A stretch of 64,000 nt of DNA from an uncultured Nitrospiraceae bacterium (GTDB lineage Bacteria > Nitrospirota > Thermodesulfovibrionia > UBA6902). Below, one piece after another: positions 1 to 45,716 of this stretch. The notes beneath the pieces are model-generated. The model saw only the letters and a program-made list of their open reading frames with translations, ran no database searches and was not told the origin of the DNA. Each line of letters opens with the position of its first letter. Position 1 is the first letter of the stretch. Both the position numbers and the translations under genes were made by a program. The DNA is taken from contig CAYMUX010000001.1 of the NCBI GenBank assembly GCA_964393845.1, positions 17,556-81,555 on the forward strand. Reading direction: 5' to 3'.

Positions 1-882
1 ATGCACTCTCCTTTCGAACTACTTACGGTCCCTCTGAAACAAGGCGGAGTATATCCTTTAGTTGAACCTGTGCTCGGCAGCTGCGGAATAGGTGTGGGTA
101 TAGAGTCGTATATGACGAAAGAGAGGTTGCAGGAAGATTTAGAGAATGGGTTATCAAGGATTTTGGAAAGAGCAAAAAATGAAAAGTATATGCCGCAGGG
201 CTGGTGGGCAACCATGGATCCTGATCTTGAAAAACTGAACTGGCCGGAGACACCGAACGTTGTTCGTTTTTTAAAGTATCCTCCTTACGTCCAGGTCAGA
301 TTTCATGGAAGAGACAAAAAATTCAATGATGATTCCCCTTCTGATCCTGGAATATTAGATTCTTTAAAACAAAGGTATGTTGAAAAAATTGGACGGCTGG
401 TTCAAGAGTACGGTTTGATGAAGTATTTTGAAGCGTATCGGCCTTATGAATTTTATAAGGCAGGACCTGTTAAAAAGGACGTTATAGATGCTGTGAGATC
501 TTCCGGACTCAAGTACATGTTTAGCAAGGCGGGATTCAACATGGACCCTCAATCACTATATATTGATAAAGATTTTATAGCCTTGAATTATACTTCAGGT
601 CAGTGGGACGGCTGGACCCCTTTTGAGACTGTTAACGATGTAACGGACTTGAAGAAATCGGAAAAGAGATTCCTCAAAGGAAATAAGCCCGGCTGGATCG
701 TGAGCACCATAGATTCCTGTTTATGGACATTCAGCGGTGAGTTCTGGAAAAGGGGCAGCAGGTTGTACGATATTGCCCGGTTTTGTGCAGATGGCGGAAA
801 TTCAAAAAAAATGATCAATGTAAAACCATATACGGTTGCCAGGTATGCAAGAATAATCGCTGATAAGGGAGGCTGTTATTAG
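1..882 (+). CDS. Hypothetical protein, 5' partial (runs off the window start); no family recognised
   Basis: Long uninterrupted + strand ORF of 293 codons starting at the window edge. Codon usage matches its neighbours. No diagnostic motif seen. Confidence 0.45.
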   Translation: MHSPFELLTVPLKQGGVYPLVEPVLGSCGIGVGIESYMTKERLQEDLENGLSRILERAKNEKYMPQGWWATMDPDLEKLNWPETPNVVRFLKYPPYVQVRFHGRDKKFNDDSPSDPGILDSLKQRYVEKIGRLVQEYGLMKYFEAYRPYEFYKAGPVKKDVIDAVRSSGLKYMFSKAGFNMDPQSLYIDKDFIALNYTSGQWDGWTPFETVNDVTDLKKSEKRFLKGNKPGWIVSTIDSCLWTFSGEFWKRGSRLYDIARFCADGGNSKKMINVKPYTVARYARIIADKGGCY

Positions 883-1057
883 TACGAATAATACACAAAA
901 AGCAAATCGGGATTATGATTGCTGGCTGCATTGGATTCCCACGTACAGATGTAACTTAAATTGTGTATATTGTTTTAGTAATCCCATAAAAAAAAGCTCC
1001 GAAATCTCCAGAATAGATACTTTTGCCATAACAAAAGCCCTCAATGAAACCAATAAA

Positions 1058-1867
1058 GTGTTTAGAATCAGTTTTACCGGCGGGGGGGAACCGTTTTTGA
1101 TACCAAATATGATCGAGGCCTGTGTTGAAATAACAAGAAATCACTTTATTGGTATTAACACCAACTTAACTTCAGGGAAGATTAAAGAATTTTCTGAAAA
1201 AATTAATCCCGAAAGAGTGTTATATATTCAGGCATCGTTACATATTAAAGAATTGGAAAGACTGAATTTGCTGGAAAAATATATACACAATTTCCAGTTA
1301 TGCAGAGTAAAGGGTTTCGATATAACAGCACATGTAGTAGCGTATCCGCCTCTTTTGGATGAAGTTGAAAAATACAAAGAATATTTTCAGGAAAAAGGAA
1401 TAAGCGTGAGATTGGACCCTTTTATCGGAGAGTACAACGGGAAAAAATATCCTGACTTCTACAGTGAGAAAGAAATTAAAATTTTGAGTCAAAGTGATAA
1501 AAATTCGACAACATATAAGCAGAAAGGGAAACTATGCAATGCCGGATACAATGTCGGCGTTGTGAACCCTTATGGATATATAAGCCCTTGTTTTAATATA
1601 TCCAGGTCTATCGGTAAGATACATGATAAAGTTAGATTCAATAAGAAACTTATTCGATGCCCTTTTAAATTTTGTAAATGTCCGCTGAATTTCCTCGACC
1701 CCTATCTTTATGAAAAAGGGAAAAAAGAAGCAGGCACAGATACTATGGCCCCGGTTTTTTTAATAAAGGACTTGTCTAGAGACTATATTAAGGAAGTAGT
1801 TATGAAACATCTGCCGGATGCTATACGCAAAAAAATCTTCAACTTCGCTGTAAGGCATGGCCTTTAA
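1058..1867 (+). CDS. Radical SAM protein with Cys-rich C-terminal (SPASM/twitch-like) region; the real start probably lies upstream near 878 (see findings)
   Basis: GGGEPFL motif immediately after the called GTG start. The CNLNCVYC (CxxxCxxC) 4Fe-4S/SAM motif is in the same frame upstream at about 941-964. C-terminal cysteines CPFKFCKCP. Confidence 0.7.
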   Translation: MFRISFTGGGEPFLIPNMIEACVEITRNHFIGINTNLTSGKIKEFSEKINPERVLYIQASLHIKELERLNLLEKYIHNFQLCRVKGFDITAHVVAYPPLLDEVEKYKEYFQEKGISVRLDPFIGEYNGKKYPDFYSEKEIKILSQSDKNSTTYKQKGKLCNAGYNVGVVNPYGYISPCFNISRSIGKIHDKVRFNKKLIRCPFKFCKCPLNFLDPYLYEKGKKEAGTDTMAPVFLIKDLSRDYIKEVVMKHLPDAIRKKIFNFAVRHGL

Positions 1868-3302
1868 ACTTCAGTCTTATATGTTACGTTTAACGAACAT
1901 GATATTTTTATTGAATAAATTTATTTTTTCACTGTTGCTTGTGTTTACGTTCTATATGATGTGCTTTGTCAGCAGTGTTAACGCTGCGACTCAAGTAATT
2001 GTTGATGAAAGTGTGACCCACCAGAGAATCGACGGGTTTGGCGGCGAAGCAGGAGCTTTACGTGATATTCAAAATATGTCAGCTATCCCTCAGAAAGAGG
2101 TACTGGACTTGCTGTATGATGTGAACAACGGCATAGGCTTAAGCATTGTTCGTGTATATATTTCACACGAGTTCGAGCTATCACCTGATGACTATGATAT
2201 AACAGTTCAAGATAAGGATGCGTGGTTATTAAACGAGGCAAAGAAGCGCGGGGTCACATATTATTTTGGCAGGGTCGGAAGCCCGCCTGCCTGGATGAAA
2301 ACTAATAATGATATCAATAATGGCGGCAGTCTCAAAGTCAGTTTTTACAATGATTTTGCTGAATTTCTCGCCCGCTGGGTAACAGATTTCAAGTCCCGAT
2401 ACAACATTGATATTTCTGCTGTATCACTGCAGAATGAGCCGGACCTTACAACTAAATATCGATCTTGCCGGTGGACCGGGCTCCAGTTTCACGATTTTCT
2501 GAAAAATAGTCTTAAGCCTGTCTGGGACCAGCAGGGCATACAAGCAAAAGTAATTGCAGCAGAACAGATGAAGTGGAGGGGCGATCTTATTAAGGCAACA
2601 CTTAAAGATCCTGCTACAGAGCCTATTCTTGATATCATTGCTGCTCATGGTTACTGGACGGCAACTCCTTTTCAATTGTCCAGTGCAAAGTCATCAAAAA
2701 AGCCGGTATGGCAAACCGAAGAGAATGGCAATTTTGGAACAGGCGCTCCCGCTGATCCAGGCATTGATGACGGGCTCTTCTGGGCAGAAAGGCTTCATAA
2801 ATGGATGACTATTGCCGGGATCAGTGCATGGAATTGGCATTGGCTGACCACCGGCAAGTCCTGGGGTAAAGATTGGGGCGCAAAGATAATCGAAATTGAC
2901 GGGGATACATATAGCTATGCCAGACGTTTGTGGACTATAGGTAACTTCAGCCGTTTTATTCGGCCTGGATACCTTCGAATTGACAGCACTCCAGAGCCTG
3001 CAATAGGAGTATTTACATCGGCCTATAAAGATCCTGCATCAGGCAACTTTGCAATAGTAGCAATCAATAAAAACAGTATTGAGCAAACATTAAATATCAG
3101 CCTCAACAATCTCACGACAAGCTCTGTGACGCCTTATGTTACGACTGATGCCTTGAACCTGGAGGCTTTCTCAAGCATTGCAGTTAATGGGAATGTATTT
3201 ACGGCTGTCCTTCCGGCAAAGAGTGTTACAACATTTACCGGATTGACATTAACAGGCACTGATGCCGTGCCGCCTGCTCCTCCTGCAGTGTCTAGTCAAT
3301 AA
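1857..3302 (+). CDS. Secreted glycoside hydrolase, GH30-like (clan GH-A)
   Basis: N-terminal hydrophobic signal peptide ending VNA-ATQ. IDGFGG motif and the LQNEP acid/base motif typical of GH30/GH5-clan enzymes. Confidence 0.6.
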   Translation: MAFKLQSYMLRLTNMIFLLNKFIFSLLLVFTFYMMCFVSSVNAATQVIVDESVTHQRIDGFGGEAGALRDIQNMSAIPQKEVLDLLYDVNNGIGLSIVRVYISHEFELSPDDYDITVQDKDAWLLNEAKKRGVTYYFGRVGSPPAWMKTNNDINNGGSLKVSFYNDFAEFLARWVTDFKSRYNIDISAVSLQNEPDLTTKYRSCRWTGLQFHDFLKNSLKPVWDQQGIQAKVIAAEQMKWRGDLIKATLKDPATEPILDIIAAHGYWTATPFQLSSAKSSKKPVWQTEENGNFGTGAPADPGIDDGLFWAERLHKWMTIAGISAWNWHWLTTGKSWGKDWGAKIIEIDGDTYSYARRLWTIGNFSRFIRPGYLRIDSTPEPAIGVFTSAYKDPASGNFAIVAINKNSIEQTLNISLNNLTTSSVTPYVTTDALNLEAFSSIAVNGNVFTAVLPAKSVTTFTGLTLTGTDAVPPAPPAVSSQ

Positions 3303-4492: not shown

Positions 4493-5209
4493 ATGGGGAA
4501 TAACGGCAGATCAAAAGACCCCGGGCTTAGCCGGGAAATATTTGTAACCGGAGAATATATTAAACACTTTAAACCGGAGGACAAACGGAACCCTTTTTCT
4601 AAAATTTATAAGCAGAAAAAAGAGGACACGATAAATCTCATTAACGGGTCTGAAGGTTCCAGGACTATTCTCGATATCGGCGGTGGAATGGGACGGCTCT
4701 CGCTGGATCTGGCCAGGTCGGACAGGAACGATGTTGTTCTCGTTGATATTTCAACGGACATGTTAAAGCTTGCAATAGAGCGTGCAGACAATTTGAATAA
4801 AATAAAATTAGTAAACTCTGACGCCCACTATCTCCCCTTTAAGGACAAGACGTTTGACTATGTGGTGGGGCTGGATCTGCTCTGTCATCTAAAGAGGCCT
4901 GAGTTGGCGCTGGCTGATTTTCATCGCGTCCTTAAAGACCAGGGAAGATTAATTATGGATTCTACAAACAGCAATCCCTTATGGACAATATTTTATCCCA
5001 GATATCTGGGGAAGAATCCCCTAACCTGGCTGAAGACAATAAAATTTCAGGGGGTATTGCCGGGGTGGGAGAAAATAGTCAGACATTATCCCAGAGATAA
5101 ATTTTTTTCTCTTTTAGAAAAGATGGATTTTGAGATAATGAAGAACTTGAATTACGGACCCAAAATATGCCCCAAGTGGCATCTGGCAGTGTCGAGGAAG
5201 GCAGGGTAA
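4493..5209 (+). CDS. Class I SAM-dependent methyltransferase
   Basis: ILDIGGGMGRL motif I, followed by VVLVDIS and DYVVGLDLLCHL motifs. Confidence 0.75.
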   Translation: MGNNGRSKDPGLSREIFVTGEYIKHFKPEDKRNPFSKIYKQKKEDTINLINGSEGSRTILDIGGGMGRLSLDLARSDRNDVVLVDISTDMLKLAIERADNLNKIKLVNSDAHYLPFKDKTFDYVVGLDLLCHLKRPELALADFHRVLKDQGRLIMDSTNSNPLWTIFYPRYLGKNPLTWLKTIKFQGVLPGWEKIVRHYPRDKFFSLLEKMDFEIMKNLNYGPKICPKWHLAVSRKAG

Positions 5210-6669
5210 TGAAGATCCTTTTATTAGATCCGCCGGGCAAGAATAAGGGGCTGAATACGGGCCTGGGTTATTTATCCGCTGTATTGAAGGACGACCATGA
5301 AGTCAGGGTGCTTGACCTGAATAACATTGATATCGGAATCTGCGGCGACCCAAATCCTGAACTGCCGGTCAAGAGTTTGGAAGAAAGGGTCATCCGTGCT
5401 GTGGAAGAATTTAGCCCTGACCTTTTTGGTATATCAGTAAAGACGTTTACAGCTGATATTGCAAGGCATATGTTTGATCTTGTAAAGGCTAAGCGGCAGA
5501 AAGTCATGACAATTGCAGGAGGCCCGCATATTACCCTGGACGGACTGAATTTTATTAAGGAAAGCAAAATTGATTTTGCTGTCCAGGGAGAAGGGGAATT
5601 TACAATAGTTGAGTTATGCAGAGCCATAAAAGAAAAAAGTGATTTAGGAAATATAAAGGGACTTATCTACTGGAAAAATGGAGAGGTAGCACAAAATCCC
5701 GAAAGCAGCAAAATAGATGATCTGGACGGCCTTCCTTTTCCATGTTACGACAACTTCAGTTCTGTTATTGATAATGGCGGACGTTTACCGGAATATCCTA
5801 TCCTGACAAGCAGAGGCTGTCCTTATAAGTGTACATACTGTTCCATGCCCAGGATTATGGGTAACAGGTGGCGTTATCGGTCGCCGGAAAACGTTGTTAA
5901 AGAACTTCAGCAGACAAAAGAGAAATACAAAAATACATGCTTCGCAGTTGTTGATGATAATTTCACCCTGAATTTAAAAAGGGTTGATAAGGTCTGTGAC
6001 CTTCTTATTTCAGAACGGCTTAATCTTGCATGGAACTGTCAGAATGGAATCCGCGCAGACAGGATTCATGAAGATTTGGCTGACAAAATGAAGCAGTCAG
6101 GATGCAGATATGTATGGATAGGCATTGAGAATGCTGACGAAGAAGTTTTTAATGCAATTAATAAAGGTGAAAAATTAGAAGACATAAAAACAGGAATCAA
6201 GCATCTTCAAAAGGCCGGAATCCGGGTCGGCGGCTTCTTTATTACAGGTTTGCCGTACAGTTCCAGAGAGGCGGATCTAAAGTCGGCCGATTTTGTCAGG
6301 GAAAATGGAATTGATGCATGGTGGTTTAATTTCATCCCCTATCCGCATACAGAAGCCTGGGACTGGGTACAGACAAATGGGAAAATACTTCGTTCTATCC
6401 AGGGAGCGCTCCAATACGGTTCAAACGATATTGATCCGGTTTTTGAGACAGATAATTATCCGAGAGATTCGAGGATAAAGACTTATAATGAAATACACAT
6501 CAGGTTGGGATATTTTGACAGGCTGGCCGATCCATCTTTAAGACAGTGCGACATGTGGTCAAGAGTATTTAAAAAAGTGCGTCCTTACGGTTTAAATGCA
6601 ACGGTTTCTCTTCTCATGTTTATATTGAAGTACAACATCAGATTGGCATTAAAAAAAATTCGCAAGTAA
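5209..6669 (+). CDS. Cobalamin (B12)-binding domain radical SAM enzyme
   Basis: N-terminal Rossmann-like B12-binding region (MKILLLDPP ... GISVKT ... IAGGPH) followed by SRGCPYKCTYCS (CxxxCxxC). Start set at MKIL, which overlaps the upstream stop (TAATG). Confidence 0.8.
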   Translation: MKILLLDPPGKNKGLNTGLGYLSAVLKDDHEVRVLDLNNIDIGICGDPNPELPVKSLEERVIRAVEEFSPDLFGISVKTFTADIARHMFDLVKAKRQKVMTIAGGPHITLDGLNFIKESKIDFAVQGEGEFTIVELCRAIKEKSDLGNIKGLIYWKNGEVAQNPESSKIDDLDGLPFPCYDNFSSVIDNGGRLPEYPILTSRGCPYKCTYCSMPRIMGNRWRYRSPENVVKELQQTKEKYKNTCFAVVDDNFTLNLKRVDKVCDLLISERLNLAWNCQNGIRADRIHEDLADKMKQSGCRYVWIGIENADEEVFNAINKGEKLEDIKTGIKHLQKAGIRVGGFFITGLPYSSREADLKSADFVRENGIDAWWFNFIPYPHTEAWDWVQTNGKILRSIQGALQYGSNDIDPVFETDNYPRDSRIKTYNEIHIRLGYFDRLADPSLRQCDMWSRVFKKVRPYGLNATVSLLMFILKYNIRLALKKIRK

Positions 6670-18437: not shown

Positions 18438-20381
18438 ATGGGAATCAGCGATTTAAGAGAAAGAAGAATAATATTCTTGCTGTCAGCAGGGGTAATTACC
18501 GGTTCAATAATCGGGCTTATTACATCTTTTTATTTCATCCTGTCAAATCGGTATATCCAATATGAAATGTATAGAATAGCGGCTTTTGTTTTTCGAGAAA
18601 ATATGAATTACAGTATTCTCTTTACTCTTGTCGGATTTGCGGGATTGTATATGCTCTGGTTTCTGCTCGTAGAAAAAATAAAATTTAATAAAATAAAAGT
18701 TGAATATTTCTATAAATTGGTAATCGTTATTTCCTTTATATGTATAGTCACTGATTTATTACTTAGGGTATTCGTAGATATTCCTTTACTATACGGGCTA
18801 AAAGATTTATTAAGAATATCGCATCGGTTTCTGCTGGGGCCAATGACGTTCCAGAAATTATTAGATACGGTAAACTCATTTCTTACAGGTTACATTATTT
18901 TAATTTGCATTGGCGCTATTGCCGTTCCCATTATATATCGCTTGCTCAAGAGGTTACCAACGGAAAAATTATCAAACTGTGCACAAAAGAAATATTTTGC
19001 GCATTCAGCTCTTGTTTTAGGTGCTTTTATATTAGTTTTAAACTTGAGTATTGTTATCGATAGAAGGATAAATACTCAGGATGGACCAAATGTTATTTTT
19101 ATTGTTGTTGACGCCCTGCGGGCGGATCATATCAGTAATTATGGATACGACAGATTAACCAGCCCGAATATTGATAGCCTGATCAACGATGGAATAGTGT
19201 TTGAAAATGCTATTAGCCAAGGCAACATGACAACGCTTTCAATGCCTTCCATGTTTACGGGACTATATACATCGGATCACGGAGCTCATATGTTGCGAAA
19301 AATAGAAACCAGATTTGCTCCTGTAAGTGATAGATTCACTACTATCGCAGAAGTTTTTAATAATGCCGGTTATATTACACAGGCGGTATCATGTCAGCCG
19401 TGGGTTTCTCCTGAAACTGGCTATGGCCAGGGATTTGACAGCTTTGAAATAGTCAGCGATTCAAGTGATAACTTATCTGATCAGATAACTGTTGAAAGAG
19501 CGCTTGAATGGATAAATAAGAAATCAGGTAAGAAATTTTTTCTTTTCCTTAATCTAATGGGTCCACATACACCATATAATCCGCCGCCGCCATATGATAC
19601 CCTGTATTTCTCAGAATATAAAAATAAATCAAAATTGATTTCGGATTTGAATAATTTCTATTTGCAGCAGAATCACGGAGAATATTACAAATTATTAATG
19701 GATACTAAAGGGGAGAATATATCCAAAGACGAGTTGAATCAATTAATGTCTTTATATGACGGGAAAATAACCTACACCGACTATCAAATCGGCCGTTTGA
19801 TTGATAAGTTGAAAGCGTTGAATATTTATGACAATACCATGATAGTTTTGACTGCGGACCATGGAGAGGCCTTCCTTGAGCATGGTATGTTTTTACACGG
19901 CAGAAGTCTTTATAATGAAGAACTTCATGTTCCGCTTATTATGACTTATCCGAATAAATTACCAAAGGGAAGGAAAGTAAAAGATATCGTGGAACTTGTT
20001 GATATATTACCTACAATCGCAAGTGTCACAGGCATCCCTGTATCCGGAATAAAAATGCGTGGAGTATCTTTATATCCTATGACTGATAATTCTGATCGTT
20101 TTGTTTATAGCGAAGGGAGCGGTCGCGTGAAATACAGGACTGATAAATGGAGCCTTATTTGTGACAGCAGCGATTGGATTTGTGAGCTCTATGATTTGGA
20201 AAATGACCGCAGCGAATTAAATAACATAATAGAAAGCAATCATAATATTGCTTCTGAGATGAAAAAAGGACTTTTTAAAGTAGTTGATAATAAAATGTAT
20301 CCTTCGGTCAGCACTGTCAAGGCCAGGATAATCCCCGAGGAAACAGAGAAGACTTTAAAATCATTGGGCTATTTGCGATAG
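18438..20381 (+). CDS. Membrane-anchored sulfatase-fold (alkaline phosphatase superfamily) transferase with LtaS/EptA/OpgB-like architecture and a C-terminal LKSLGYLR tail
   Basis: About 5 N-terminal TM helices. PNVIFIVVDALRADH metal-binding block. TSPNIDSL. TADHGEAF ... HG. Nucleophile region TTLSMPSM (no C/S-x-P-x-R). Confidence 0.75.
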   Translation: MGISDLRERRIIFLLSAGVITGSIIGLITSFYFILSNRYIQYEMYRIAAFVFRENMNYSILFTLVGFAGLYMLWFLLVEKIKFNKIKVEYFYKLVIVISFICIVTDLLLRVFVDIPLLYGLKDLLRISHRFLLGPMTFQKLLDTVNSFLTGYIILICIGAIAVPIIYRLLKRLPTEKLSNCAQKKYFAHSALVLGAFILVLNLSIVIDRRINTQDGPNVIFIVVDALRADHISNYGYDRLTSPNIDSLINDGIVFENAISQGNMTTLSMPSMFTGLYTSDHGAHMLRKIETRFAPVSDRFTTIAEVFNNAGYITQAVSCQPWVSPETGYGQGFDSFEIVSDSSDNLSDQITVERALEWINKKSGKKFFLFLNLMGPHTPYNPPPPYDTLYFSEYKNKSKLISDLNNFYLQQNHGEYYKLLMDTKGENISKDELNQLMSLYDGKITYTDYQIGRLIDKLKALNIYDNTMIVLTADHGEAFLEHGMFLHGRSLYNEELHVPLIMTYPNKLPKGRKVKDIVELVDILPTIASVTGIPVSGIKMRGVSLYPMTDNSDRFVYSEGSGRVKYRTDKWSLICDSSDWICELYDLENDRSELNNIIESNHNIASEMKKGLFKVVDNKMYPSVSTVKARIIPEETEKTLKSLGYLR

Positions 20382-27735: not shown

Positions 27736-29892
27736 ATGGGAATAAAGACCGGTTCCAGTTCAAGTTATTATAAGGATATCATTAAGTCGGTTGTAATTTG
27801 GACTTTGTGTATCTCCCTTTTTGAATCTTTTAAAATTACAATCAGCACTTCGGTGCGTTATATAGCGCCGTGGGATGTGTTTGTGATTTCTGTTGCCCTT
27901 TTCTTCACTTATTTGGTTATATGGGCGGCAGTCATGTTTCCGGCAGCTTTTTTGCTGAAGTCGTTTTTACAAAAAAGAGATATGTCTGAAGGAAGTCTGA
28001 CGACTATTTATTGCTCCGTAGCGCTGTTTTTGTATGAATTATTCTGGATTGTATATAAGTCCGCTTATGAAGGATTAACAAACACTTCCTACGGGGTGTT
28101 TTTTCCGTTGGCTCAATTAGTCCTTGCCGGTGTTATCGCATACGCTGTATTTCAACTTGCAGAGTTTCTCAGGAATAAGGGGCATCTGAAGCAGTTAGGG
28201 CTTAAATTATTCAGTTTATGGTTGACTGTCTTAGCTTACATGATGTTGAACATTTATTTGAAGTCATCCTTTGAACAGGGATTTAACTCGCTGTATTCTG
28301 TTTCACTCTTTGTATTATTTCTGGTGGTTTATAAAATATTGGTTGCCTTATTCAGAAAAGTCAGACTGAAATCTACCATGTCTGTTTTACTCCTGATTGT
28401 CACAAGAATAAAACTTTTTATAATCATCTCAGTTTCAGCAGCGCTTCTGTTTGGTTTTGCCTATTACGGCATGGCAAAAAAGACCGACATATCCTCAAGT
28501 CCTAATATCTTATTTATTTCAATCGATACCTTAAGGGCCGACCATCTCTCCTGTTACAGTGAAATCAAGGGGAAGACTTCACCTAACATTGACAGGATTG
28601 CTCAGAGCGGATATATATTTTCTAATGCGTATTCACCAACTACATGGACCCTTCCCGGACATGCTTCAATGATGACGGGTTTATTTCCTTCTTCCCATAA
28701 AGCGGACAGGAGCCTTCACCAGACATTAAGCCGTCCTGTAGATCCACTGTCTCCCTCTGTACTGACTCTTGCAGAAATCTTAAGAGAGAAAGGGTATCTG
28801 ACGGCCGGTATTATCAGCAACCCTTTCGTTTCCCGTTCATTCGGCATGGACCAGGGTTTCGAGTTTTATGATGATCAGGTGGATCTCTTCGAAGACGTGC
28901 GGTATTTATCATTGAAAGATGAATCAATGCTCTTTAAGCTTATCGAGATACTGAAGATAATTGATACAAACGATTATGATGGGGAGAGAAGAGTTGTGGA
29001 GGTAAATGAAAAGGCCTTCAGATGGCTTAACGATAACAAGGACAAGAAAGAACCCTTTTTTCTGTTTCTACACTACAATGAACCTCACTATAAATATGAA
29101 CCGCCGTCTCCATATAACAAAAACAGCGGCGGACGGGAGTTGCCTTATTTTGATGACATAGCGAGATTGAATAAAGGAGAATTTACTCTTAGTTCTTCAA
29201 GTCTAAAGGATATGCTGGATCTTTACGATGGAGAGATAACCTATCTGGACCATTACCTGGGATTGCTTTTTAATAAGCTTGATGATTGGCAGCTTCTAGA
29301 AAATACGGTTTTGATAATCACATCAGATCATGGAGAGAGTTTTAACGAGCATGAAGTATGGCAGCATGGAAACAGTTTATATGAAGAGCAGATTCGCGTA
29401 CCATTAATTATCCTCTATCCCAAATTAAAACCTGACGGCGTTATTAATAAAGATATTGTGCAAACTGTTGATTTGATGCCGACCGTTCTGGATCTTCTGA
29501 ACATCCCTGTCCCTGGAAATGTTCAGGGAAGAAGTCTTGTTCCCCTTCTAAAAGGAGAGACGGAACGCAACTTCAATCTCGCCTTTGCGGAAATTCGTCC
29601 GGACATTAACTGGAAGGCCCAAAACCCGAAATATGGAATTGGCATGAGAGCAGTGATTTATAAAGAGTGGAAGTATATTCAATCTGATGACGGAAAAGAA
29701 GAACTTTATAATTTAAGTGATGACCATAACGAAAATATTAATTTGATTCACAAAGAAAAAGAAAAAGCGGATGAAATTCGTAAAATATTAAACTCATGGT
29801 CAAGTGCCGTCACTCTTAATAATGGTGAAAAGCAGGAGAAAATAGACAGCGGCAGGCTGGAACAATTACGCTCGCTCGGGTATCTGAAGTAG
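27736..29892 (+). CDS. Membrane-anchored sulfatase-fold transferase (LtaS/OpgB-like) with C-terminal LRSLGYLK tail
   Basis: Multi-TM N-terminus. NILFISIDTLRADH. TSPNIDRIA. Nucleophile region WTLPGHASMMTG (Thr, His in place of Arg). TSDHGESF. Confidence 0.75.
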   Translation: MGIKTGSSSSYYKDIIKSVVIWTLCISLFESFKITISTSVRYIAPWDVFVISVALFFTYLVIWAAVMFPAAFLLKSFLQKRDMSEGSLTTIYCSVALFLYELFWIVYKSAYEGLTNTSYGVFFPLAQLVLAGVIAYAVFQLAEFLRNKGHLKQLGLKLFSLWLTVLAYMMLNIYLKSSFEQGFNSLYSVSLFVLFLVVYKILVALFRKVRLKSTMSVLLLIVTRIKLFIIISVSAALLFGFAYYGMAKKTDISSSPNILFISIDTLRADHLSCYSEIKGKTSPNIDRIAQSGYIFSNAYSPTTWTLPGHASMMTGLFPSSHKADRSLHQTLSRPVDPLSPSVLTLAEILREKGYLTAGIISNPFVSRSFGMDQGFEFYDDQVDLFEDVRYLSLKDESMLFKLIEILKIIDTNDYDGERRVVEVNEKAFRWLNDNKDKKEPFFLFLHYNEPHYKYEPPSPYNKNSGGRELPYFDDIARLNKGEFTLSSSSLKDMLDLYDGEITYLDHYLGLLFNKLDDWQLLENTVLIITSDHGESFNEHEVWQHGNSLYEEQIRVPLIILYPKLKPDGVINKDIVQTVDLMPTVLDLLNIPVPGNVQGRSLVPLLKGETERNFNLAFAEIRPDINWKAQNPKYGIGMRAVIYKEWKYIQSDDGKEELYNLSDDHNENINLIHKEKEKADEIRKILNSWSSAVTLNNGEKQEKIDSGRLEQLRSLGYLK

Positions 29893-29948
29893 GAATTAAT
29901 ACAAAGTCCTTTATTATTCATTATCATATCAACAACGGTTTAATAGCA

Positions 29949-32039
29949 TTGATTAATACAAGCAACGTAAATGAGAAAAGATATATAAGAGATATAGTCT
30001 TATTATTTTTTATTACCTTTACCATTTATTATTATGCCCTGATCAGTTTTTTTGTGGCTGAAGACCTGGTATGGATTTCACTTTTTAATCAAGTTGGTCT
30101 TAAGGATTTTTTTAAACTATATACACCGTTATCAAAGATCCCGGAGCAAGGCCCGGAGGCATTTATCAGGATTGTGACTATTGGTTTATGGGCATTTGAT
30201 TTCAATGTCTGGGGGCAAAATCCTTTTGGTTATCATTTGACTAATGTCAGTCTTCATTTTATAAATTCAGCTCTGCTTTATTTTATCGTTTATAAAAGCT
30301 CTGGGAACAGGTCTCTCGGCTTGTCCTCAGCTGTTCTTTTTTCAATTTTTCCCGGCAATGTCGAAGCAGTTGCGTGGATATGTGGAAGATTTGATGTTTT
30401 CAGCATATTTTTCTACCTATCTTCTCTTCTTCTCTTCATCATGTTTATTAGAGAAAAGAAAAGAATATTCTATTTTGTTTCTCTAACTGCAGCTTGCTTA
30501 GCTATATTGAGTAAAGAAATTGCTTATACTATTCCCTTCTCTATAATTTTATGGGATAGTTTTTTTGGGAGAGAATTCCGTAATGAAAAGATTCGTCAGC
30601 GGCTGTACTGGTATCTTCCATATTTCATGATGATGATTATCGCCCTTATCTGGCGCCTCTTTATTTTTAACGATGTGGGAGGTTATGGGGATGCAACAGG
30701 GAAATCGCTTCAGTTAACGAGTTACTTTAATAGATGGATTCTTGAGGGTCTGCTTATTAATTTCCCTTTAAGACTTATAGCGCCTTTTAATTATCAGGCA
30801 AATCAGACATATTGGTGGTATTTAGTAATAATTTTTTTAGCGTTCTTCGGTATTTTAATATTCTCAGCTTTCTTAAAAAAGAACATTCCAAAGGGACTTA
30901 TATTTTCTATATTGTTTATCTTTGTATCTATTTCTCCGGTATATAATATGTTGAATGGCGTAAGCCGTAATCTTCAGAGTTCCCGATTTCTATATCTGCC
31001 CTCTGCAGGATTTTGCATGGCTGTCAGTTACTTAATATTTCATGCTTTTAATGATACCCGTCTGCAAAAGAAACTAAAAACTGCCTCATTTGTTTTTTTA
31101 ATCGTAATTTATTCAATCACTGCTTTTCAGAACATAAAAATCTGGCATGAGTCATCTGATCTAGTCAGAGAAGTAACGGTCCAGGTCAAGAAACTCCATC
31201 CTTCCGTATCCGGGGATGCGCAGTTATTTTATCTTTTGCCATATGACATAAAAGGCTGGGTAATACCATTTAGCCCTGGTACCAGGGAGGTTACTTCATA
31301 TGCTTACAACTATTGGAAACCTAAAGGCTCATATGAAAATCTAAAAGAGAATGGTAATTTTAGCGCGTATTCTAAAGCATTCATAGATCAATATGTCAGG
31401 AACTATCCATTTGCCTCAACCATGTTATTAAACTATAACAATAAGACGAGAAATGAAACAATGAACAGGAAAATCCACGTTTCCAAGCTGTTAAAACATA
31501 TAAATCCTGACTCAAAAAATTATTTTTTATTATGGGATAAAGAAGAGCGCAGGCTTATAGACATTAGCGAAGAGTTTATGAATAACTTTACATCAAGGAC
31601 ACCCGTGCAGATTGATCATTATTCGATTCTGGATATGAATAATTTTGTCTACTGGAATATAGAATCTTTAAATGTAGAGAATGATAAAAATAATTTAAAA
31701 ATAATGTCAAACGGCAAAGGTATAAAACTGTCACGGTCCTTTCAAAATATTAATCCTCTGGATTTTGAGGAGATTGAAATAAAGGCCGGCGGCCATAGTA
31801 ATGGAAGAAAGCTTACAGCAATATTATCGTGGAATCAAACCAGGCCTGACAATTTATATGATAAGAAAGAATATCAGTTTGAGATTGTTATGGACAATGA
31901 ATTGAGAAGTTATCGGTTTAATTTAATAGATAATCTGGATTGGGCATTTGAAACAAATATCAGGGATATTGTTCTATCAACGAGCGATTTCGATGGGAAT
32001 TTGAGTATAGAGTGGATCAGGTTTAATAATAATATATGA
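29949..32039 (+). CDS. TMTC/DUF1736-like GT-C membrane glycosyltransferase
   Basis: NPFGYHLTNVSLHFINSALLYF ... PGNVEAVAWICGRFDV block characteristic of the DUF1736/PMT_2 region of TMTC-type O-mannosyltransferases. About 10 TM helices plus a C-terminal soluble domain of about 300 aa. TTG start. Confidence 0.55.
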   Translation: MINTSNVNEKRYIRDIVLLFFITFTIYYYALISFFVAEDLVWISLFNQVGLKDFFKLYTPLSKIPEQGPEAFIRIVTIGLWAFDFNVWGQNPFGYHLTNVSLHFINSALLYFIVYKSSGNRSLGLSSAVLFSIFPGNVEAVAWICGRFDVFSIFFYLSSLLLFIMFIREKKRIFYFVSLTAACLAILSKEIAYTIPFSIILWDSFFGREFRNEKIRQRLYWYLPYFMMMIIALIWRLFIFNDVGGYGDATGKSLQLTSYFNRWILEGLLINFPLRLIAPFNYQANQTYWWYLVIIFLAFFGILIFSAFLKKNIPKGLIFSILFIFVSISPVYNMLNGVSRNLQSSRFLYLPSAGFCMAVSYLIFHAFNDTRLQKKLKTASFVFLIVIYSITAFQNIKIWHESSDLVREVTVQVKKLHPSVSGDAQLFYLLPYDIKGWVIPFSPGTREVTSYAYNYWKPKGSYENLKENGNFSAYSKAFIDQYVRNYPFASTMLLNYNNKTRNETMNRKIHVSKLLKHINPDSKNYFLLWDKEERRLIDISEEFMNNFTSRTPVQIDHYSILDMNNFVYWNIESLNVENDKNNLKIMSNGKGIKLSRSFQNINPLDFEEIEIKAGGHSNGRKLTAILSWNQTRPDNLYDKKEYQFEIVMDNELRSYRFNLIDNLDWAFETNIRDIVLSTSDFDGNLSIEWIRFNNNI

Positions 32040-33925
32040 TGACACTAGATATAGAAAAAGAAAAATCAGGAAAAGATATTATTACAGCCATTACTATTGG
32101 TTTGATACTGGGCGTTTGTTTAGGAATCCTGGGTAGCTTTATCTCAATTTATTCTAACCGTTATTTTGAACAGGAAATGTATAAATTGATGCTGGATACA
32201 GTAGTATTTAATATTAATCTCAGTAGCGGATTTACTGTTTTTGTGTTCATGATGGCTGTTATTATTAAAATTTATTTTAAGAAAGATTTTCTCCAAAGAA
32301 GCGCTGTTACTTTTATAATTTTGAACCTGATATTCTTTCTCATTTTACATTATATAAAATCGGCGGAATTTCCCGACTTCATAGGAAACAGCAGCAATTT
32401 AGCTTATATGCTTATGGTTCCAATTCTTTCTTTGATAACTCTGTTAATTATATTGCTGATTCCCAGACTGATAGAGTATTTGGAGAATAAGAATATTCCA
32501 TCCATACGCTTCTCTCGCGTAAGGTGTATCGTAGTAGCAGCAACGTCTATTATATTAATAAACAGTTTTTATTATTTTATTCATTATAAGCAGAGGGAAC
32601 AGTGGCCGAATATTATTTTTATAAATATTGATACATTGAGGGCGGATCATTTAAGCGCATATGGATATTTCAGGGAAACAAGCCCGAATATAGATAGTTT
32701 TTCCACTCAGGGTGTATTATTTGAAAATACGGTAGTCGAAGCCCCTTTTACGATGGTTTCGGTTGCTTCACTATTTACTTCCCAATATCCATATACGCAC
32801 GGTGTCAGAGATCATCCGGACGTCAGAAATCATACATTAAATAAACAGAGTCTGACACTTGCCGAAGTACTGAATAATGCAGGATATGTTACTGCGGGTA
32901 TTACAGCCAACTCTCTTATTTCTCCCCAAAAGGGGTACGACCAGGGCTTTAATGTATATAAATATGCGGATATTGCCTCGGATGTCAATAATAAAAGTAT
33001 TAAATGGTTAAATAAGAACTTTCAAAAAAAGTTCTTCCTCTATATCCACTATATTGATCCTCACCTTGCATATGCTCCTCCCAATGAACATATTCAAACT
33101 TTTGATAAGGATTATGAAGGTGAGTTTAAATACAGCTTCCAAAGACCGATCAAGGATAAAATATTCGTTAGCGATCTGTCGGAAAGAGACTTTAATCATG
33201 CTATAGCCCTCTATGATGAGGAAATAAAATACACGGATTCTCAGATCGGGATTTTGCTTGTCAAGATAAAAGAATTGGGAATTTTCGATAATTCAATTAT
33301 TATTATCACTGCAGACCACGGAGAGAGCCTTGGGGAACATGGTGTTTATTTTGCGCATGATTTTTATTTATATGACCCAATGGTAAGAGTCCCTTTAATT
33401 ATCAAATTTCCGAATAACCAATATAAAAATAAAAAAATTAATGATGTAGTTCGAGTGATAGATATTATGCCCTCAATTTTGGATATTGCTCATATATCCA
33501 GTGCAAATATATATCAAGGGGTAAGTTTAGTGCCGACGATCAGTGAGGGGAAAAAAATGAATTTCTACGCTTATGCGGAATCATGCTCTTATAGACCTAA
33601 TTATGGATTTACTATTCCTATGGAGCAGCAGCGCTTTTACCTGCCCGGTATAAAGGGGAAAACAAGAATGGTGAGAAACGGAAAATGGAAACTAATCTAT
33701 ATCCCCGGGCGTACAGGAAGATTATTTGAACTTTATAATATTGAAGAGGACCCACATGAATTAAACAATATTTTAGATAATCACCCGGAAACCTTTCAGC
33801 AGTTAAAGCAGAATCTATTTGAATTTCTTGAAAAGGACACGCTGGAGTACGAAGATTACATTAACCCTAAAAAAATTGATCGGGGCACATTGGATGTTCT
33901 TAAGTCATTGGGTTACATAAAATAA
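32036..33925 (+). CDS. Membrane-anchored sulfatase-fold transferase with C-terminal LKSLGYIK tail
   Basis: Multi-TM N-terminus. NIIFINIDTLRADH. TSPNIDSF. Nucleophile region FTMVSVASLFTS. TADHGESLGEHG. Confidence 0.75.
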   Translation: MMTLDIEKEKSGKDIITAITIGLILGVCLGILGSFISIYSNRYFEQEMYKLMLDTVVFNINLSSGFTVFVFMMAVIIKIYFKKDFLQRSAVTFIILNLIFFLILHYIKSAEFPDFIGNSSNLAYMLMVPILSLITLLIILLIPRLIEYLENKNIPSIRFSRVRCIVVAATSIILINSFYYFIHYKQREQWPNIIFINIDTLRADHLSAYGYFRETSPNIDSFSTQGVLFENTVVEAPFTMVSVASLFTSQYPYTHGVRDHPDVRNHTLNKQSLTLAEVLNNAGYVTAGITANSLISPQKGYDQGFNVYKYADIASDVNNKSIKWLNKNFQKKFFLYIHYIDPHLAYAPPNEHIQTFDKDYEGEFKYSFQRPIKDKIFVSDLSERDFNHAIALYDEEIKYTDSQIGILLVKIKELGIFDNSIIIITADHGESLGEHGVYFAHDFYLYDPMVRVPLIIKFPNNQYKNKKINDVVRVIDIMPSILDIAHISSANIYQGVSLVPTISEGKKMNFYAYAESCSYRPNYGFTIPMEQQRFYLPGIKGKTRMVRNGKWKLIYIPGRTGRLFELYNIEEDPHELNNILDNHPETFQQLKQNLFEFLEKDTLEYEDYINPKKIDRGTLDVLKSLGYIK

Positions 33926-34054
33926 TATATGGATTAATATCATGCCCCTGATAAACAAAGACACATTATTCTCCATCTCATAATTGCATATGTCCCACTG
34001 TTTGAAATAAGAGAGGCTGAAGATACCTGCTTAATTCGGTAATATCGAGTCAAT

Positions 34055-36172
34055 ATGAAACATATAAGCCATAGATTGCTGTGCGGATTGGTATTGGGAG
34101 TTATATATTATTTGGCTGAAGTAATATGGAATTTATCATTCGACAGACTTAATGTTGATGTTGTTCCGCTGATGACTGCCTTATTGATATATGCTGCCGG
34201 CTTCGGCCTTTTGGGTTTAATCGGAACCACAGGACTTGAATTGGTTTTCGGTTTAAAGGAGAAGATTGATAATTTCAGAGCCATTCAATGCGCGTGGATA
34301 ACCACTGCTATCGCAAATGCTTTTTTCGGAGGTAGTTACCTGATATTCAAGGTCTTCTTCTTTTCCTCCGGAATAAATAAAATCATTATCATTACAGTAC
34401 TGAGCTGTCTCACGGCGGTTTCATGTTACTTGCTTTACTATCTGATTAATAAATTTTTTATTAAAAAAGCAGACTATTTTAAGACAGTTCATTATTCCAC
34501 TCTTCTTTCGGCCAATATTTTTATGCTGATGGCCATTAAAGTGAATCTTGAATTAAGGACCCCTCCCTGGTCTTCCGGTAATCTGTTCCGGGATTTTATT
34601 ATATTACTTGTGAGTTCGGCTATAGGCGGGGTATGTTTTTTAATCTTAAGAAGTTTCGCAAAGGGGATGCCAAAACTACGGTTAAGCTTAATAATAATCA
34701 TAATGGTATCTGCTGGAATTGTTATATATTCTCTTTATGGTAAAGTTACAAATAATAAATCTATTGGCAGACAGGCTGATAAAATCTTGTCTAAGAATGT
34801 CAGTCCAGTCACTCCTGTTATCTTGATTACTTTAGATACATTGCGTGCTGACCACCTGGGTGTTTACGGATATGGGAGAGAAACGAGCCCGAATATTGAC
34901 AGGTTTGCCAAGGACGGGGTGCTTTGGGAAAATGCAATCGTTCAAGTTCCTCTGACGCGACCTTCTCATTTCTCCATACTATCCGGGAGATATCCTTCAT
35001 CTCATGGTTTGCTTGATAACTTCAGTGCGACACCTGAAAATGTACCATTATTGTCTAATATTTTGGGAGTAAACGGCTATGAGACGGCAGCATTTGTCAG
35101 CGCCGCTGTTTTAAATTCGAGCTTTAATACAAAGCTTGGGTTCCAGGTGTATTCCGACCGGATTGAAAATGTTGTTTTCGATAACAGCTTTTTGCTGGTT
35201 TTCAGTTTAAGAAAGATAGAGGTCATTAGCCGGATAAAGGCCGAGAACAGCGCCAGTGAGACTAATAAAAAGGTTTTTACATGGTTAAAAGAAAATGAGA
35301 AAGGTCCCTTTTTCATGTGGGTGCATTACTTTGATCCTCACACTCCTTATAGTCCTGATCCATCTTTCAGAAAAATGTTCACTGATAGCGATTATGACAT
35401 ACAGAAATATTATAGCTACGAGTGGGAGAAGGAGAATTACGACAGCGTGCAGAAAAAAGTGCATATTGACGAAAAAATTACTCACTATGCTGTTGCTCTG
35501 TATGATGCAGAAATTAGAACTTTAGATAATGAATTGGGCAGTTTGTTTAATCAATTAAAGGAGTTGAAACTGTATGAAAGAAGCTTGATTATATTAACCG
35601 CAGATCATGGAGAGAGTTTTGATCACGGATATTATTTTGATCATGGGGACCGACTCTATGAGGGGCTGATCCGGGTACCTCTAATCATAAAGTTCCCCAA
35701 AGAAAAATGGCAGGGTAAGACAATAGAGACACAGGTTAAGTCCATTGATATTGCCCCGACGATTATAGAATATCTATCTTTAAAACATTCTGAAAAAATG
35801 GATGGTAAAAGTATGATCTCACAGGCCTCAAATAATGATAATAATTTACCGGTGGAGACGAGTTACGCCTATTCTCAAACCCCTTATCAGGGATTTTTCT
35901 ATTACAAGGCAAAAGAACTGCAATCTATCAGGAGCAACAAATGGAAGTACATTTATGATGTCAGGACAGGGGCGCCGGAACTTTACGATATTAATTCTGA
36001 CCCCGGTGAACAAAATAATTTTGCTTCTTCCCGGCCGGATATCCTGAAGGAATTCAATTCAGAGTTGTTAAACTTTACTAATAGTATTAATAAAGATAAC
36101 GGCAGATCGAAAACTATAGAGATAGATAGTACAACAAAGGACCAGTTGAAAAGCCTCGGTTATATTAAATGA
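34055..36172 (+). CDS. Membrane-anchored sulfatase-fold transferase with C-terminal LKSLGYIK tail
   Basis: Multi-TM N-terminus. ILITLDTLRADH. TSPNIDRFA. Nucleophile region PLTRPSHFSILSG (T-x-P-x-H). TADHGESF. Confidence 0.75.
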   Translation: MKHISHRLLCGLVLGVIYYLAEVIWNLSFDRLNVDVVPLMTALLIYAAGFGLLGLIGTTGLELVFGLKEKIDNFRAIQCAWITTAIANAFFGGSYLIFKVFFFSSGINKIIIITVLSCLTAVSCYLLYYLINKFFIKKADYFKTVHYSTLLSANIFMLMAIKVNLELRTPPWSSGNLFRDFIILLVSSAIGGVCFLILRSFAKGMPKLRLSLIIIIMVSAGIVIYSLYGKVTNNKSIGRQADKILSKNVSPVTPVILITLDTLRADHLGVYGYGRETSPNIDRFAKDGVLWENAIVQVPLTRPSHFSILSGRYPSSHGLLDNFSATPENVPLLSNILGVNGYETAAFVSAAVLNSSFNTKLGFQVYSDRIENVVFDNSFLLVFSLRKIEVISRIKAENSASETNKKVFTWLKENEKGPFFMWVHYFDPHTPYSPDPSFRKMFTDSDYDIQKYYSYEWEKENYDSVQKKVHIDEKITHYAVALYDAEIRTLDNELGSLFNQLKELKLYERSLIILTADHGESFDHGYYFDHGDRLYEGLIRVPLIIKFPKEKWQGKTIETQVKSIDIAPTIIEYLSLKHSEKMDGKSMISQASNNDNNLPVETSYAYSQTPYQGFFYYKAKELQSIRSNKWKYIYDVRTGAPELYDINSDPGEQNNFASSRPDILKEFNSELLNFTNSINKDNGRSKTIEIDSTTKDQLKSLGYIK

Positions 36173-36227
36173 CATCATACGATCAGCAGTTTTTCTTTAT
36201 GATCGTAAATCGAAAGCAGTGAAATAG

Positions 36228-38390: not shown

Positions 38391-38462
38391 TGTTATCTGT
38401 GCGGACATTGATATGGTCAGGCAGTTTTTGCTTCGGGTTTTCCTCCTCTATGAAAGTTCTTC

Positions 38463-44794: not shown

Positions 44795-45716
44795 CCTGGT
44801 AACGATCTTAAAAGTCCTCGTATCCGGTGTCCTTCTATACCTGATTTCTAAAGAAATTGACTGGAGCCAGTTAATCGTTTCCATAAAGCAGGGACGATTC
44901 ATTTATCTGTTTATCGGGATAATTTTAGGATGCGGATTTAACGTGGTAAAATTTATCAAGTGGCATTATCTGATAAGGACAGGAGACCATAATTATTCAT
45001 TTCTAGATGGAGTAAAATCTTACATGATCGGCAATAGCCTGGGCTTGATCACGCCTATGCGCGCCGGCGACCTCGGCAGGGCCCTGTATTTTCATGTGGA
45101 CGACCGTCCCAGGATCATAGGGCTTACGGTCATGGACAGATTTACCGAGCTTGTTGCTGTTCTGGCTCTCTCTATCGGAGGATGTTTTGTCCTTCTGAAT
45201 AAAGGAGTGGGAATGATCGTCGTATCGCTTGCCTTCTTTGGTATTTTATCGCTTTATGCTGCCGGGTTCCTCCATGGGATAGTTAAAAGAATTATTCCGG
45301 ATGGAAGGATTGGCGGGAAAATAATAAAATTGATGGATATCTTAAGATTACTGGACAAAAATACTGTATCTATTGTTCTGCTACTTTCATTTGTCGCATT
45401 TGTGTTGTGTATTATACAGTTCTACTTTCTCATAATTGCATTCGAGAAAATATCATTGTCATCCGTGTTTCTGGCTACCCCATTAGTGACACTCTCTTCG
45501 ATACTCCCTGTGAGTATTATGGGGCTTGGGGTCCGGGAAGGAATTTCAATTGTCCTTCTTGCAAAATTCAATATATCTGCTGCAACGGCTGTCTCCGCGG
45601 CTTTTCTTTTTTTCCTGATAAATAATGTTTCAATAAGCGGTATTGGAATTTATTATCTGTCAAAGGTTAGAATAAAAACTCAAACTCAAGAGGCAAACTG
45701 TGAATTTAAGATTTAA
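44784..45716 (+). CDS. Flippase-like / lysylphosphatidylglycerol-synthase-TM-region family membrane protein
   Basis: LVSGVLLYLISKEIDW ... NSLGLITPMRAGDLGRALYF, typical of the PF03706-type flippase-like domain. About 8 TM helices. Confidence 0.55.
   Translation: MKNNLVTILKVLVSGVLLYLISKEIDWSQLIVSIKQGRFIYLFIGIILGCGFNVVKFIKWHYLIRTGDHNYSFLDGVKSYMIGNSLGLITPMRAGDLGRALYFHVDDRPRIIGLTVMDRFTELVAVLALSIGGCFVLLNKGVGMIVVSLAFFGILSLYAAGFLHGIVKRIIPDGRIGGKIIKLMDILRLLDKNTVSIVLLLSFVAFVLCIIQFYFLIIAFEKISLSSVFLATPLVTLSSILPVSIMGLGVREGISIVLLAKFNISAATAVSAAFLFFLINNVSISGIGIYYLSKVRIKTQTQEANCEFKI

Follow-up and report, generated by a model that had tools for sequence, protein, structure and literature searches.

The stretch of DNA analyzed here, 64,000 nucleotides (nt) of contig CAYMUX010000001.1 from an uncultured Nitrospiraceae bacterium (positions 17,556 to 81,555, referred to below as the window), carries near its beginning a gene for a radical S-adenosylmethionine (SAM) enzyme in which the iron-sulfur cluster motif is encoded upstream of every canonical start codon. 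Translation of this gene is most probably initiated at an ATT codon (positions 878–880) driven by a strong Shine-Dalgarno (SD) sequence, and it is probably coupled to termination of the gene located immediately upstream. The first-pass annotation, made from the letters of the window, had proposed ATT as a rare start codon served by a strong SD. That proposal is supported by conservation of the ATT in three of three assemblies, by the coding type of evolution of the N-terminal stretch, and by the alignment of the ATT with the N-terminal Met of the homologs.

Besides the window, only two close relatives of the gene are known, L002 and L051. The first is a contig of a metagenome-assembled genome (MAG; DYJL01000003.1) from African mine water, labelled Nitrospira japonica, and the second is a Logan assembly of run SRR22387929. 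The proteins that they encode are 91–94% identical to that of the window, with synonymous divergence (dS) of 0.2–0.5, and all comparisons of the conservation footprint and of selection described below are based on these three independent sequences. No further close relatives were found in the metagenome contigs that were scanned either with the protein or with a degenerate DNA pattern for DYDCWLHW, the latter chosen to avoid bias towards ATT. The 7-kb stretch of L002 has a G+C content of 44%, compared with 33–45% for the window. Cultured Nitrospira are much richer in G+C, and the Nitrospira japonica label of the L002 MAG may thus be unreliable.

Reading Frame and Iron-Sulfur Motif

The radical SAM frame is open from 857 to 1867, and the 67 codons between 857 and 1057 include no ATG, GTG or TTG, so that GTG 1058 is the first canonical codon in the frame; on re-reading of the sequence, the description given in the first-pass annotation proved correct in this respect. 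This start-less open stretch of 201 nt is the longest found in front of any of the 46 open reading frames (ORFs) of the window. The second-longest (120 nt, positions 29829–29948) precedes a PMT_2 gene called from TTG 29949. The stretch at 857–1057 encodes ...NRDYDCWLHWIPTYRCNLNCVYCFSNP..., which includes the CxxxCxxC motif. The motif reads CNLNCVYC and, when the protein is numbered from ATT 878, comprises residues C25, C29 and C32. Its location upstream of the canonical starts had been recognized before, with coordinates (941–964) that in fact cover TYRCNLNC; the exact site is 950–973. The elements of the frame are as follows.

854–856, + strand: in-frame TAA stop that forms the 5' boundary of the radical SAM frame; L002 and L051 carry TAA TAG at the same place.
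878–1867, + strand: radical SAM coding sequence as proposed here, 329 codons plus the stop TAA at 1865–1867; PF04055, 196 homologs.
950–973, + strand: CxxxCxxC, the ligand motif of the radical SAM [4Fe-4S] cluster; among 25 homologs, C29 and C32 never vary, and at least 90% have C25.
1058–1060, + strand: GTG (Val61), the mechanical start of the ORF; GTC in L002, so unconserved.
1079–1093, + strand: GGGEP (G68–P72), the glycine-rich SAM-binding element; G70, E71 and P72 are invariant and G69 nearly so.
1097–1099, + strand: TTG (Leu74 of GGEPFL), the start of the NCBI protein P0001; CTG in L051.

When the protein is read from 878, it matches the Pfam family Radical_SAM (PF04055) with 37.7 bits against a cut-off of 29.5, starting from profile position 2, whereas the protein read from GTG 1058 yields zero Pfam matches. 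The sequence-based matches to solved structures all span profile positions ~7–117, that is, the N-terminal part. The products predicted by gene callers in the three assemblies are 256, 269 and 313 residues long, and the first two of them do not include the cluster motif. The 256-residue protein (P0001) starts at TTG 1097, and the Logan call in L051 starts at GTG 1058. Gene finders cut off the iron-sulfur motif because ATT is not accepted as a start, and since that motif is missing from the 256- and 269-residue products, the precomputed Pfam column lists no radical SAM domain for this protein.

Conservation and Structure of the N Terminus

A search over 5.8 billion proteins identified a radical SAM family of 196 homologs, nearly all of them stand-alone proteins of 280–350 residues, in which the Met is followed by the conserved family motif YDAWLHW...CNLNCxYC. 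The first-pass annotation had suggested comparing the N termini of the orthologs, which might have begun at a Met close to GGGEPFL and lacked an N-terminal CxxxCxxC; the orthologs do carry this motif. The distance from the Met to the first Cys is 15–26 codons in the family (48 genomic loci, 120 proteins), and it is 24 codons when counted from ATT 878, which shares an alignment column with the Met of several homologs. All complete family members in the 48 loci start at this distance with ATG, or rarely with GTG or TTG. In an alignment of 25 homologs, Y13, C29 and C32 are invariant, and D14, L17, W19 and C25 are nearly so.

The AlphaFold2 model of the protein read from 878, characterized by a mean predicted local distance difference test (pLDDT) score of 82.9 and a predicted template-modeling score of 0.81, consists of alternating strands and helices. 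Residues 11–20 (YDCWLHWIP) have a pLDDT of 91 and include the first strand (residues 15–19), with only residues 1–9 disordered. Since Y13 is invariant and residues 11–20 are folded in the model, the start has to be located upstream of approximately codon 13. Taken together with the extent of the open frame, the folded and invariant N terminus places the start between 857 and ~911. Of the near-cognate codons in that interval, ATT 878 alone combines conservation with a correct distance from the SD.

The substitution pattern points to translation of the same stretch. The ratio of nonsynonymous to synonymous substitution rates (dN/dS), calculated pairwise by the Nei-Gojobori method, is 0.07 for codons 17–60 in all three comparisons (dS 0.4–1.1), and the N-terminal stretch must therefore be translated. 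The corresponding values are 0.08–0.15 for the part of the gene from 1058 onwards and 0.08–0.16 for the whole gene, and the frame of 329 codons is intact in all three sequences.

Truncated entries of the family were considered as further cases of non-canonical starts and were rejected, since L052 contains a frameshift in an A9 run and in L053 and L054 in-frame ATG and GTG starts had been missed by the gene caller. Because the other family members are ordinary in this respect, the absence of a canonical start is peculiar to the lineage of the window. The frameshift in L052 (JGI 3300041085, a distant member) is located at ~1380–1500, just past CxxxCxxC, and represents either a homopolymer error or a real pseudogene. 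Several archaeal MAGs (L001, L003, L004 and L007, Asgard and others) carry 2–4 tandem paralogs of the radical SAM family. In one archaeal paralog, P0002, Ser replaces the first cluster Cys (RSNLNCLWCC).

Shine-Dalgarno Sequence and the ATT Junction

The geometry described in the first-pass annotation, with an SD at 865–872, a 5-nt gap, ATT at 878 and the stop of the upstream gene at 880–882, is present in the sequence in every detail. The SD, AAGGGAGG (core GGAGG, 868–872), occurs as the sole exact copy in the 64 kb. The last T of the ATT is the first base of the TAG stop of the upstream ORF, so that the two genes overlap by 5 nt (ATTAG).

1–882, + strand: upstream gene, the 3' part (293 codons) of a gene for an uncharacterized protein of ~680 residues, with the stop TAG at 880–882.
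865–872, + strand: SD sequence AAGGGAGG, placed within the part of the upstream gene that encodes its unconstrained tail; all three sequences have it unchanged.
873–877, + strand: spacer of 5 nt that separates the SD from the start; the window reads CTGTT, L002 CCATC and L051 TTATT; four of the five positions vary, and the length is fixed.
878–880, + strand: proposed ATT initiation codon, kept in three of three assemblies and aligned with the N-terminal Met of the homologs.
926–928, + strand: CTG (Leu17), a rival near-cognate start with no SD at a usable distance; TTG in L002.

Only two other genes in the window are preceded by a full GGAGG SD, at 5 nt and 4 nt before the ATG codons at 27736 and 60743, respectively, and the spacing of the ATT therefore fits local practice. 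Stop/start overlaps are common in the window, with nine of 4 nt and two of 1 nt, giving eleven ATGA or TAATG junctions. Since every canonical start has G as its last base and every stop has U as its first, the 5-nt AUUAG class is out of reach of canonical starts; the ATTAG overlap is possible only with a start codon whose last base is T. Overlaps of 1 nt and 4 nt are the only ones that canonical starts permit (PMC3592434). The notion that the upstream stop forbids an ATG at 878 was also considered and amounts to a weak constraint, as the tail of the upstream protein would merely gain three codons in the window and in L051, and twelve in L002.

The three assemblies have in common the SD, the length of the 5-nt spacer, the ATT and its overlap with TAG, whereas the bases preceding the SD differ. 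None of the 11 positions of the SD and the ATT is variable, compared with 9 of the 13 positions in the flanks and spacer (Fisher p = 6e-4, three sequences). Each of the canonical candidates located downstream has been lost once, with GTG 1058 replaced by GTC in L002, TTG 1097 by CTG in L051, and ATG 1109 by ATT in L002. Nor do the relatives retain the near-cognate codons located further upstream, CTG 860 and ATA 863. The indel, or variant restoring an ATG-initiated frame, that the first-pass annotation had envisaged as the other way in which the ATT might prove spurious is found in neither the L002 nor the L051 assembly.

The core of the upstream protein ends at ARYARII and is followed by a tail of 2–10 residues that is variable across 92 homologs and within which the SD is located. 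Conservation of the SD consequently remains unexplained by constraint on the upstream protein, and the KGG encoded in this tail was rejected as its cause on the same grounds.

Proposed Mechanism of Initiation

A near-cognate start is read as fMet by the initiator tRNA. Initiation of the radical SAM protein by this tRNA would take place at ATT 878, promoted by the SD located 5 nt upstream. As the stop and the start overlap, ribosomes that end the synthesis of the upstream protein at TAG would already be positioned over the SD and the start site at the moment of release, and re-initiation at ATT 878, that is, translational coupling, is probable beside de novo initiation. Overlapping gene pairs are well known to couple re-initiation to termination (PMC6728339, PMC12548453).

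Overall, initiation at AUU reaches roughly 1–15% of that at AUG; in E. coli it amounts to ~1–2% in one reporter set and is 6–8 times lower than at AUG in another (10.1101/063800; PMC3592434). Since AUU initiates far below AUG, the radical SAM enzyme is probably made at a low level; it would be expected to be scarce relative to its operon neighbors and possibly sensitive to IF3. If the ATT is selectively maintained, it would be an easy means of holding the amount of a radical-generating enzyme down and of tying it to the translation of its upstream neighbor.

Alternative Explanations

Several points weigh against initiation at the ATT. The comparison includes three related sequences only, with dS of ~0.2–0.5, and identity by descent of just the three bases of the ATT is statistically unremarkable. 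The conserved SD and ATTAG are equally expected under a +1 frameshift of the prfB type, and the footprint alone separates neither of these two readings from the other. In L002, the in-frame TTG at codon 17 could act as a canonical start, and synonymous sites in codons 2–16 are too scarce for that segment by itself to reveal coding selection.

If translation began at codon 17, a CTG in the window (926) and in L051 and a TTG in L002, the protein would be 16 residues shorter and would retain CxxxCxxC. That codon is canonical in L002, CTG is a near-cognate start of a strength similar to ATT (10.1101/063800), and codons 2–16 exhibit no measurable excess of synonymous change. However, no SD is found within 5–9 nt of it, the nearest G-rich run (GGGA, 909–912) being 13 nt away, and both CTG and TTG encode Leu, the residue that is nearly invariant at this position. 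Two residues of YDxWLxW, the invariant Y13 and D14 (at least 90%), lie upstream of codon 17 and are preserved in all three sequences, and the model puts residues 11–20 in the folded core. A start at this codon would also leave the conserved SD and ATT unexplained, and we regard it as unlikely.

The first-pass annotation had offered, as an alternative to the ATT start, a +1 frameshift that would join the radical SAM ORF to the preceding one. In its prfB-like form, such programmed frameshifting would take place at TAT-TAG (877–882), where a ribosome stalled at the stop would be driven into the +1 frame by the internal SD 4 nt before the P-site codon, and yield a fusion of the upstream protein of ~680 residues with the radical SAM enzyme. 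The arrangement of the stop, the SD and the frames resembles that of prfB, with an internal SD a short distance ahead of the stop and with the second ORF in the +1 frame; this relation is conserved in all three sequences, and the P-site codons, UAU and CAU, are both of the wobble-read NAU type. Other observations speak against a frameshift. After a +1 shift, neither tRNA-Tyr nor tRNA-His would be able to pair with AUU, and the codon in the P site differs among the sequences (TAT or CAT). The site, UAU-U or CAU-U, is unlike the slippery site of the CUU-U type. The gap between the SD and the P site is 4 nt rather than the 3 nt of prfB, thus off by 1 nt, whereas the 5 nt to the ATT agrees with the distance from SD to start in the other genes of the window that have GGAGG. 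The homologs of the downstream protein are stand-alone, with no N-terminal fusion in any of 120, and it is their Met that aligns with the ATT. A homolog of the upstream protein adjoins a member of the radical SAM family in none of 48 other loci. Loci with the closest relatives of the upstream gene have no small radical SAM gene, and the pair has come together recently. RNA folding of 840–940 revealed no significant structure (z = -0.73), and a search with Rfam over 500–1500 found no recoding or other element. A scan for promoters and terminators showed no excess. We consider this frameshift very unlikely, and assign a similarly small chance to prfB-like +1 recoding that proceeds without re-pairing (SD, 4-nt gap, NAU, UAG), possibly beside initiation at the ATT. 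If recoding were true, a single junction would give rise to both the free enzyme and an enzyme tethered to the ~680-residue protein of the glycan operon.

A further alternative is initiation at another near-cognate codon nearby. All three sequences have ACG at 884, and positions 875–880 read ATT ATT in L051 and ATC ATT in L002, offering an additional candidate at 875 in these relatives. On the other hand, ACG initiates less strongly than ATT in E. coli (10.1101/063800) and is located 11 nt from the SD, and codon 875, which is GTT in the window, is placed only 2 nt from the SD. It is highly improbable that one of these codons is used, and we infer from the sequences that ATT 878 is the codon that would serve.

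The least probable explanation is that the gene is a pseudogene that recently lost its ATG, or that the ATT is an assembly or sequencing error, with no full-length enzyme made: the other family members examined all use a canonical start, the sources are metagenome assemblies and the distant member L052 is frameshifted in an A run, yet the same ATT is found in three independent assemblies from different samples, dN/dS is 0.07–0.17 for the N-terminal stretch as well as for the remainder of the gene with dS of up to at least 0.5, and all 329 codons are intact. On these comparative data, the explanation is largely refuted.

Upstream Gene and the Variable Slot

The upstream gene that would be coupled to the ATT start is complete in L002 (945–3005), where it encodes a protein of 686 residues. 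Its family is well conserved and includes 92 homologs from Thermodesulfobacteriota, Acidobacteriota, Aminicenantes, Chloroflexi and one Asgard archaeon, and the protein family has no match in Pfam or NCBIfam. In the closest relatives of the upstream gene (71–74% identity), it is followed directly by genes for GT4, methyltransferase and B12 radical SAM enzymes, as found later in the window. Four relatives (L055–L058) contain the 680-residue gene within an operon of the order GT2-GT2-[680 aa]-GT4-methyltransferase-B12 radical SAM. The small radical SAM gene is absent from L055–L057, and L058 has a glycoside-hydrolase-like gene in this slot.

The slot between the genes for the 680-residue protein and GT4 extends over 878–3302 in the window and over 2118–3209 in L051. 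Its only occupant in L051 is the radical SAM gene, which is joined by a GH30-like gene in the window and in L002. The nearest other homologs of the radical SAM protein are archaeal (57% identity), with members from Omnitrophota at lower identity. Since relatives of the upstream gene have this slot empty or differently filled, the radical SAM gene looks like a lineage-specific, horizontally acquired insertion into a variable slot.

C-Terminal Cysteines and Enzyme Subfamily

The fold of the radical SAM superfamily is supported for the protein by a model of the partial TIM-barrel type, by the Foldseek matches and by the invariant GGEP. The C-terminal sequence CPFKFCKCP, pointed out in the first-pass annotation, is indeed present at 1658–1684.

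1535–1681, + strand: C-terminal cysteines C220, C238, C261 and C266 (as well as C268), a putative auxiliary Fe-S site with the pattern C220-x12-G233-x4-C238 and C261-x4-C266-x-C268.

Residues C220, G233, C238, C261 and C266 are invariant in 25 homologs, and C220-x12-G233-x4-C238 agrees with the first half-motif of SPASM and twitch domains, CX9-15GX4C. The full seven-Cys SPASM motif (CX2CX5CX3C) is absent, with only C261-x4-C266-x-C268 found in its place, and Pfam SPASM gives no match at E <= 0.01. The best Foldseek matches are CteB, MoaA, anSME, SkfB, EpeE, SuiB, BtrN and PqqE (E 1e-9 to 1e-7, template-modeling score ~0.5). All NCBIfam matches are far below their cut-offs, the top one being to the STM4011 family (54 bits against 200). 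The earlier remark that the C terminus is SPASM/twitch-like thus stands with regard to the four invariant cysteines, the Cx12Gx4C pattern and the nearest folds, and fails with regard to the seven-Cys motif and the Pfam SPASM match. A twitch-like C terminus with a putative single auxiliary cluster at most is a fair description.

The enzyme shares with the SPASM/twitch enzymes (anSME, CteB, SkfB, BtrN, MoaA, EpeE/YydG) the N-terminal CxxxCxxC, the GGEP element, and the C-terminal Cx12Gx4C with further invariant cysteines. In contrast, its sequence identity to them is 15–21%, it has 4–5 C-terminal cysteines instead of seven, and its gene is located in a polysaccharide operon rather than in a peptide-maturation cluster.

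Operon Context

All 46 large ORFs of the window are on the + strand, with almost no intergenic space, and form one giant cluster for biosynthesis and modification of glycans. The cluster includes genes for GT2 (~7 paralogs), GT4, several PMT_2/GT-C transferases, a Wzx-type flippase and an epimerase, as well as SAM methyltransferases, two B12-binding radical SAM enzymes, a GH30-like hydrolase and enzymes of the sulfatase family. This context suggests that the radical SAM enzyme acts in the modification of sugars or glycans.

Six paralogs of 630–720 residues with a Sulfatase/type I phosphodiesterase domain are located at 18438–20381 and 27736–40526, and their mutual identity is 28–34%. Those at 27736 and 32036–40526 are nearly tandem, with the PMT_2 gene at 29949 alone between them. 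An additional pair, 45700–47817 and 47814–49760, is 40% identical and contains the Phosphodiest domain. These sulfatase/phosphodiesterase paralogs look like an array of LtaS/EptA-like transferases.

When the B12 radical SAM gene is read as its longest ORF, from ATG 5167, it shares 43 nt with the methyltransferase gene before it, whereas ATG 5209 (MKILLLDPPG) would give a 1-nt overlap of the stop and the start (5167–5211 in the window). The real start of this gene is probably 5209, because in L055 and L056 the gene begins right after the methyltransferase gene.

Comparison with Known Systems

Starts at AUU have been documented for infC and pcnB of E. coli (bioRxiv 10.1101/063800) and for ebpA of Enterococcus faecalis (PMC4447247). 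The radical SAM gene is similar to them in having an AUU start accompanied by an SD, with low translation efficiency expected (10.1101/063800; PMC3592434), and in that every canonical start in the frame lies downstream of sequence that encodes an essential N-terminal domain. In ebpA, the annotated downstream canonical start is likewise wrong (PMC4447247). The radical SAM gene differs from all three in that it encodes an enzyme of another protein family and belongs to a glycan operon, and its ATT start is proposed from sequence comparison. The closest similarity in arrangement is to infC, which also directly follows the stop of an upstream cistron. However, in infC the stop and the start are 3 nt apart, whereas here the ATT overlaps the stop by one base (ATTAG), and infC senses its own product, whereas no autoregulatory logic is known for the radical SAM gene.

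Coupled overlapping pairs of the ATGA or TAATG type are also comparable, being co-directed genes with overlapping stop and start and with the SD within the upstream coding sequence, although the overlap described here is one of 5 nt (AUUAG). A conserved SD followed by a near-cognate codon, together with a domain that appears to be "missing" upstream of the called start, provides a route to recovering such genes. As initiation at ATT is already documented for infC, pcnB, ebpA and others, the radical SAM gene of the window extends this list and leaves the picture unchanged.

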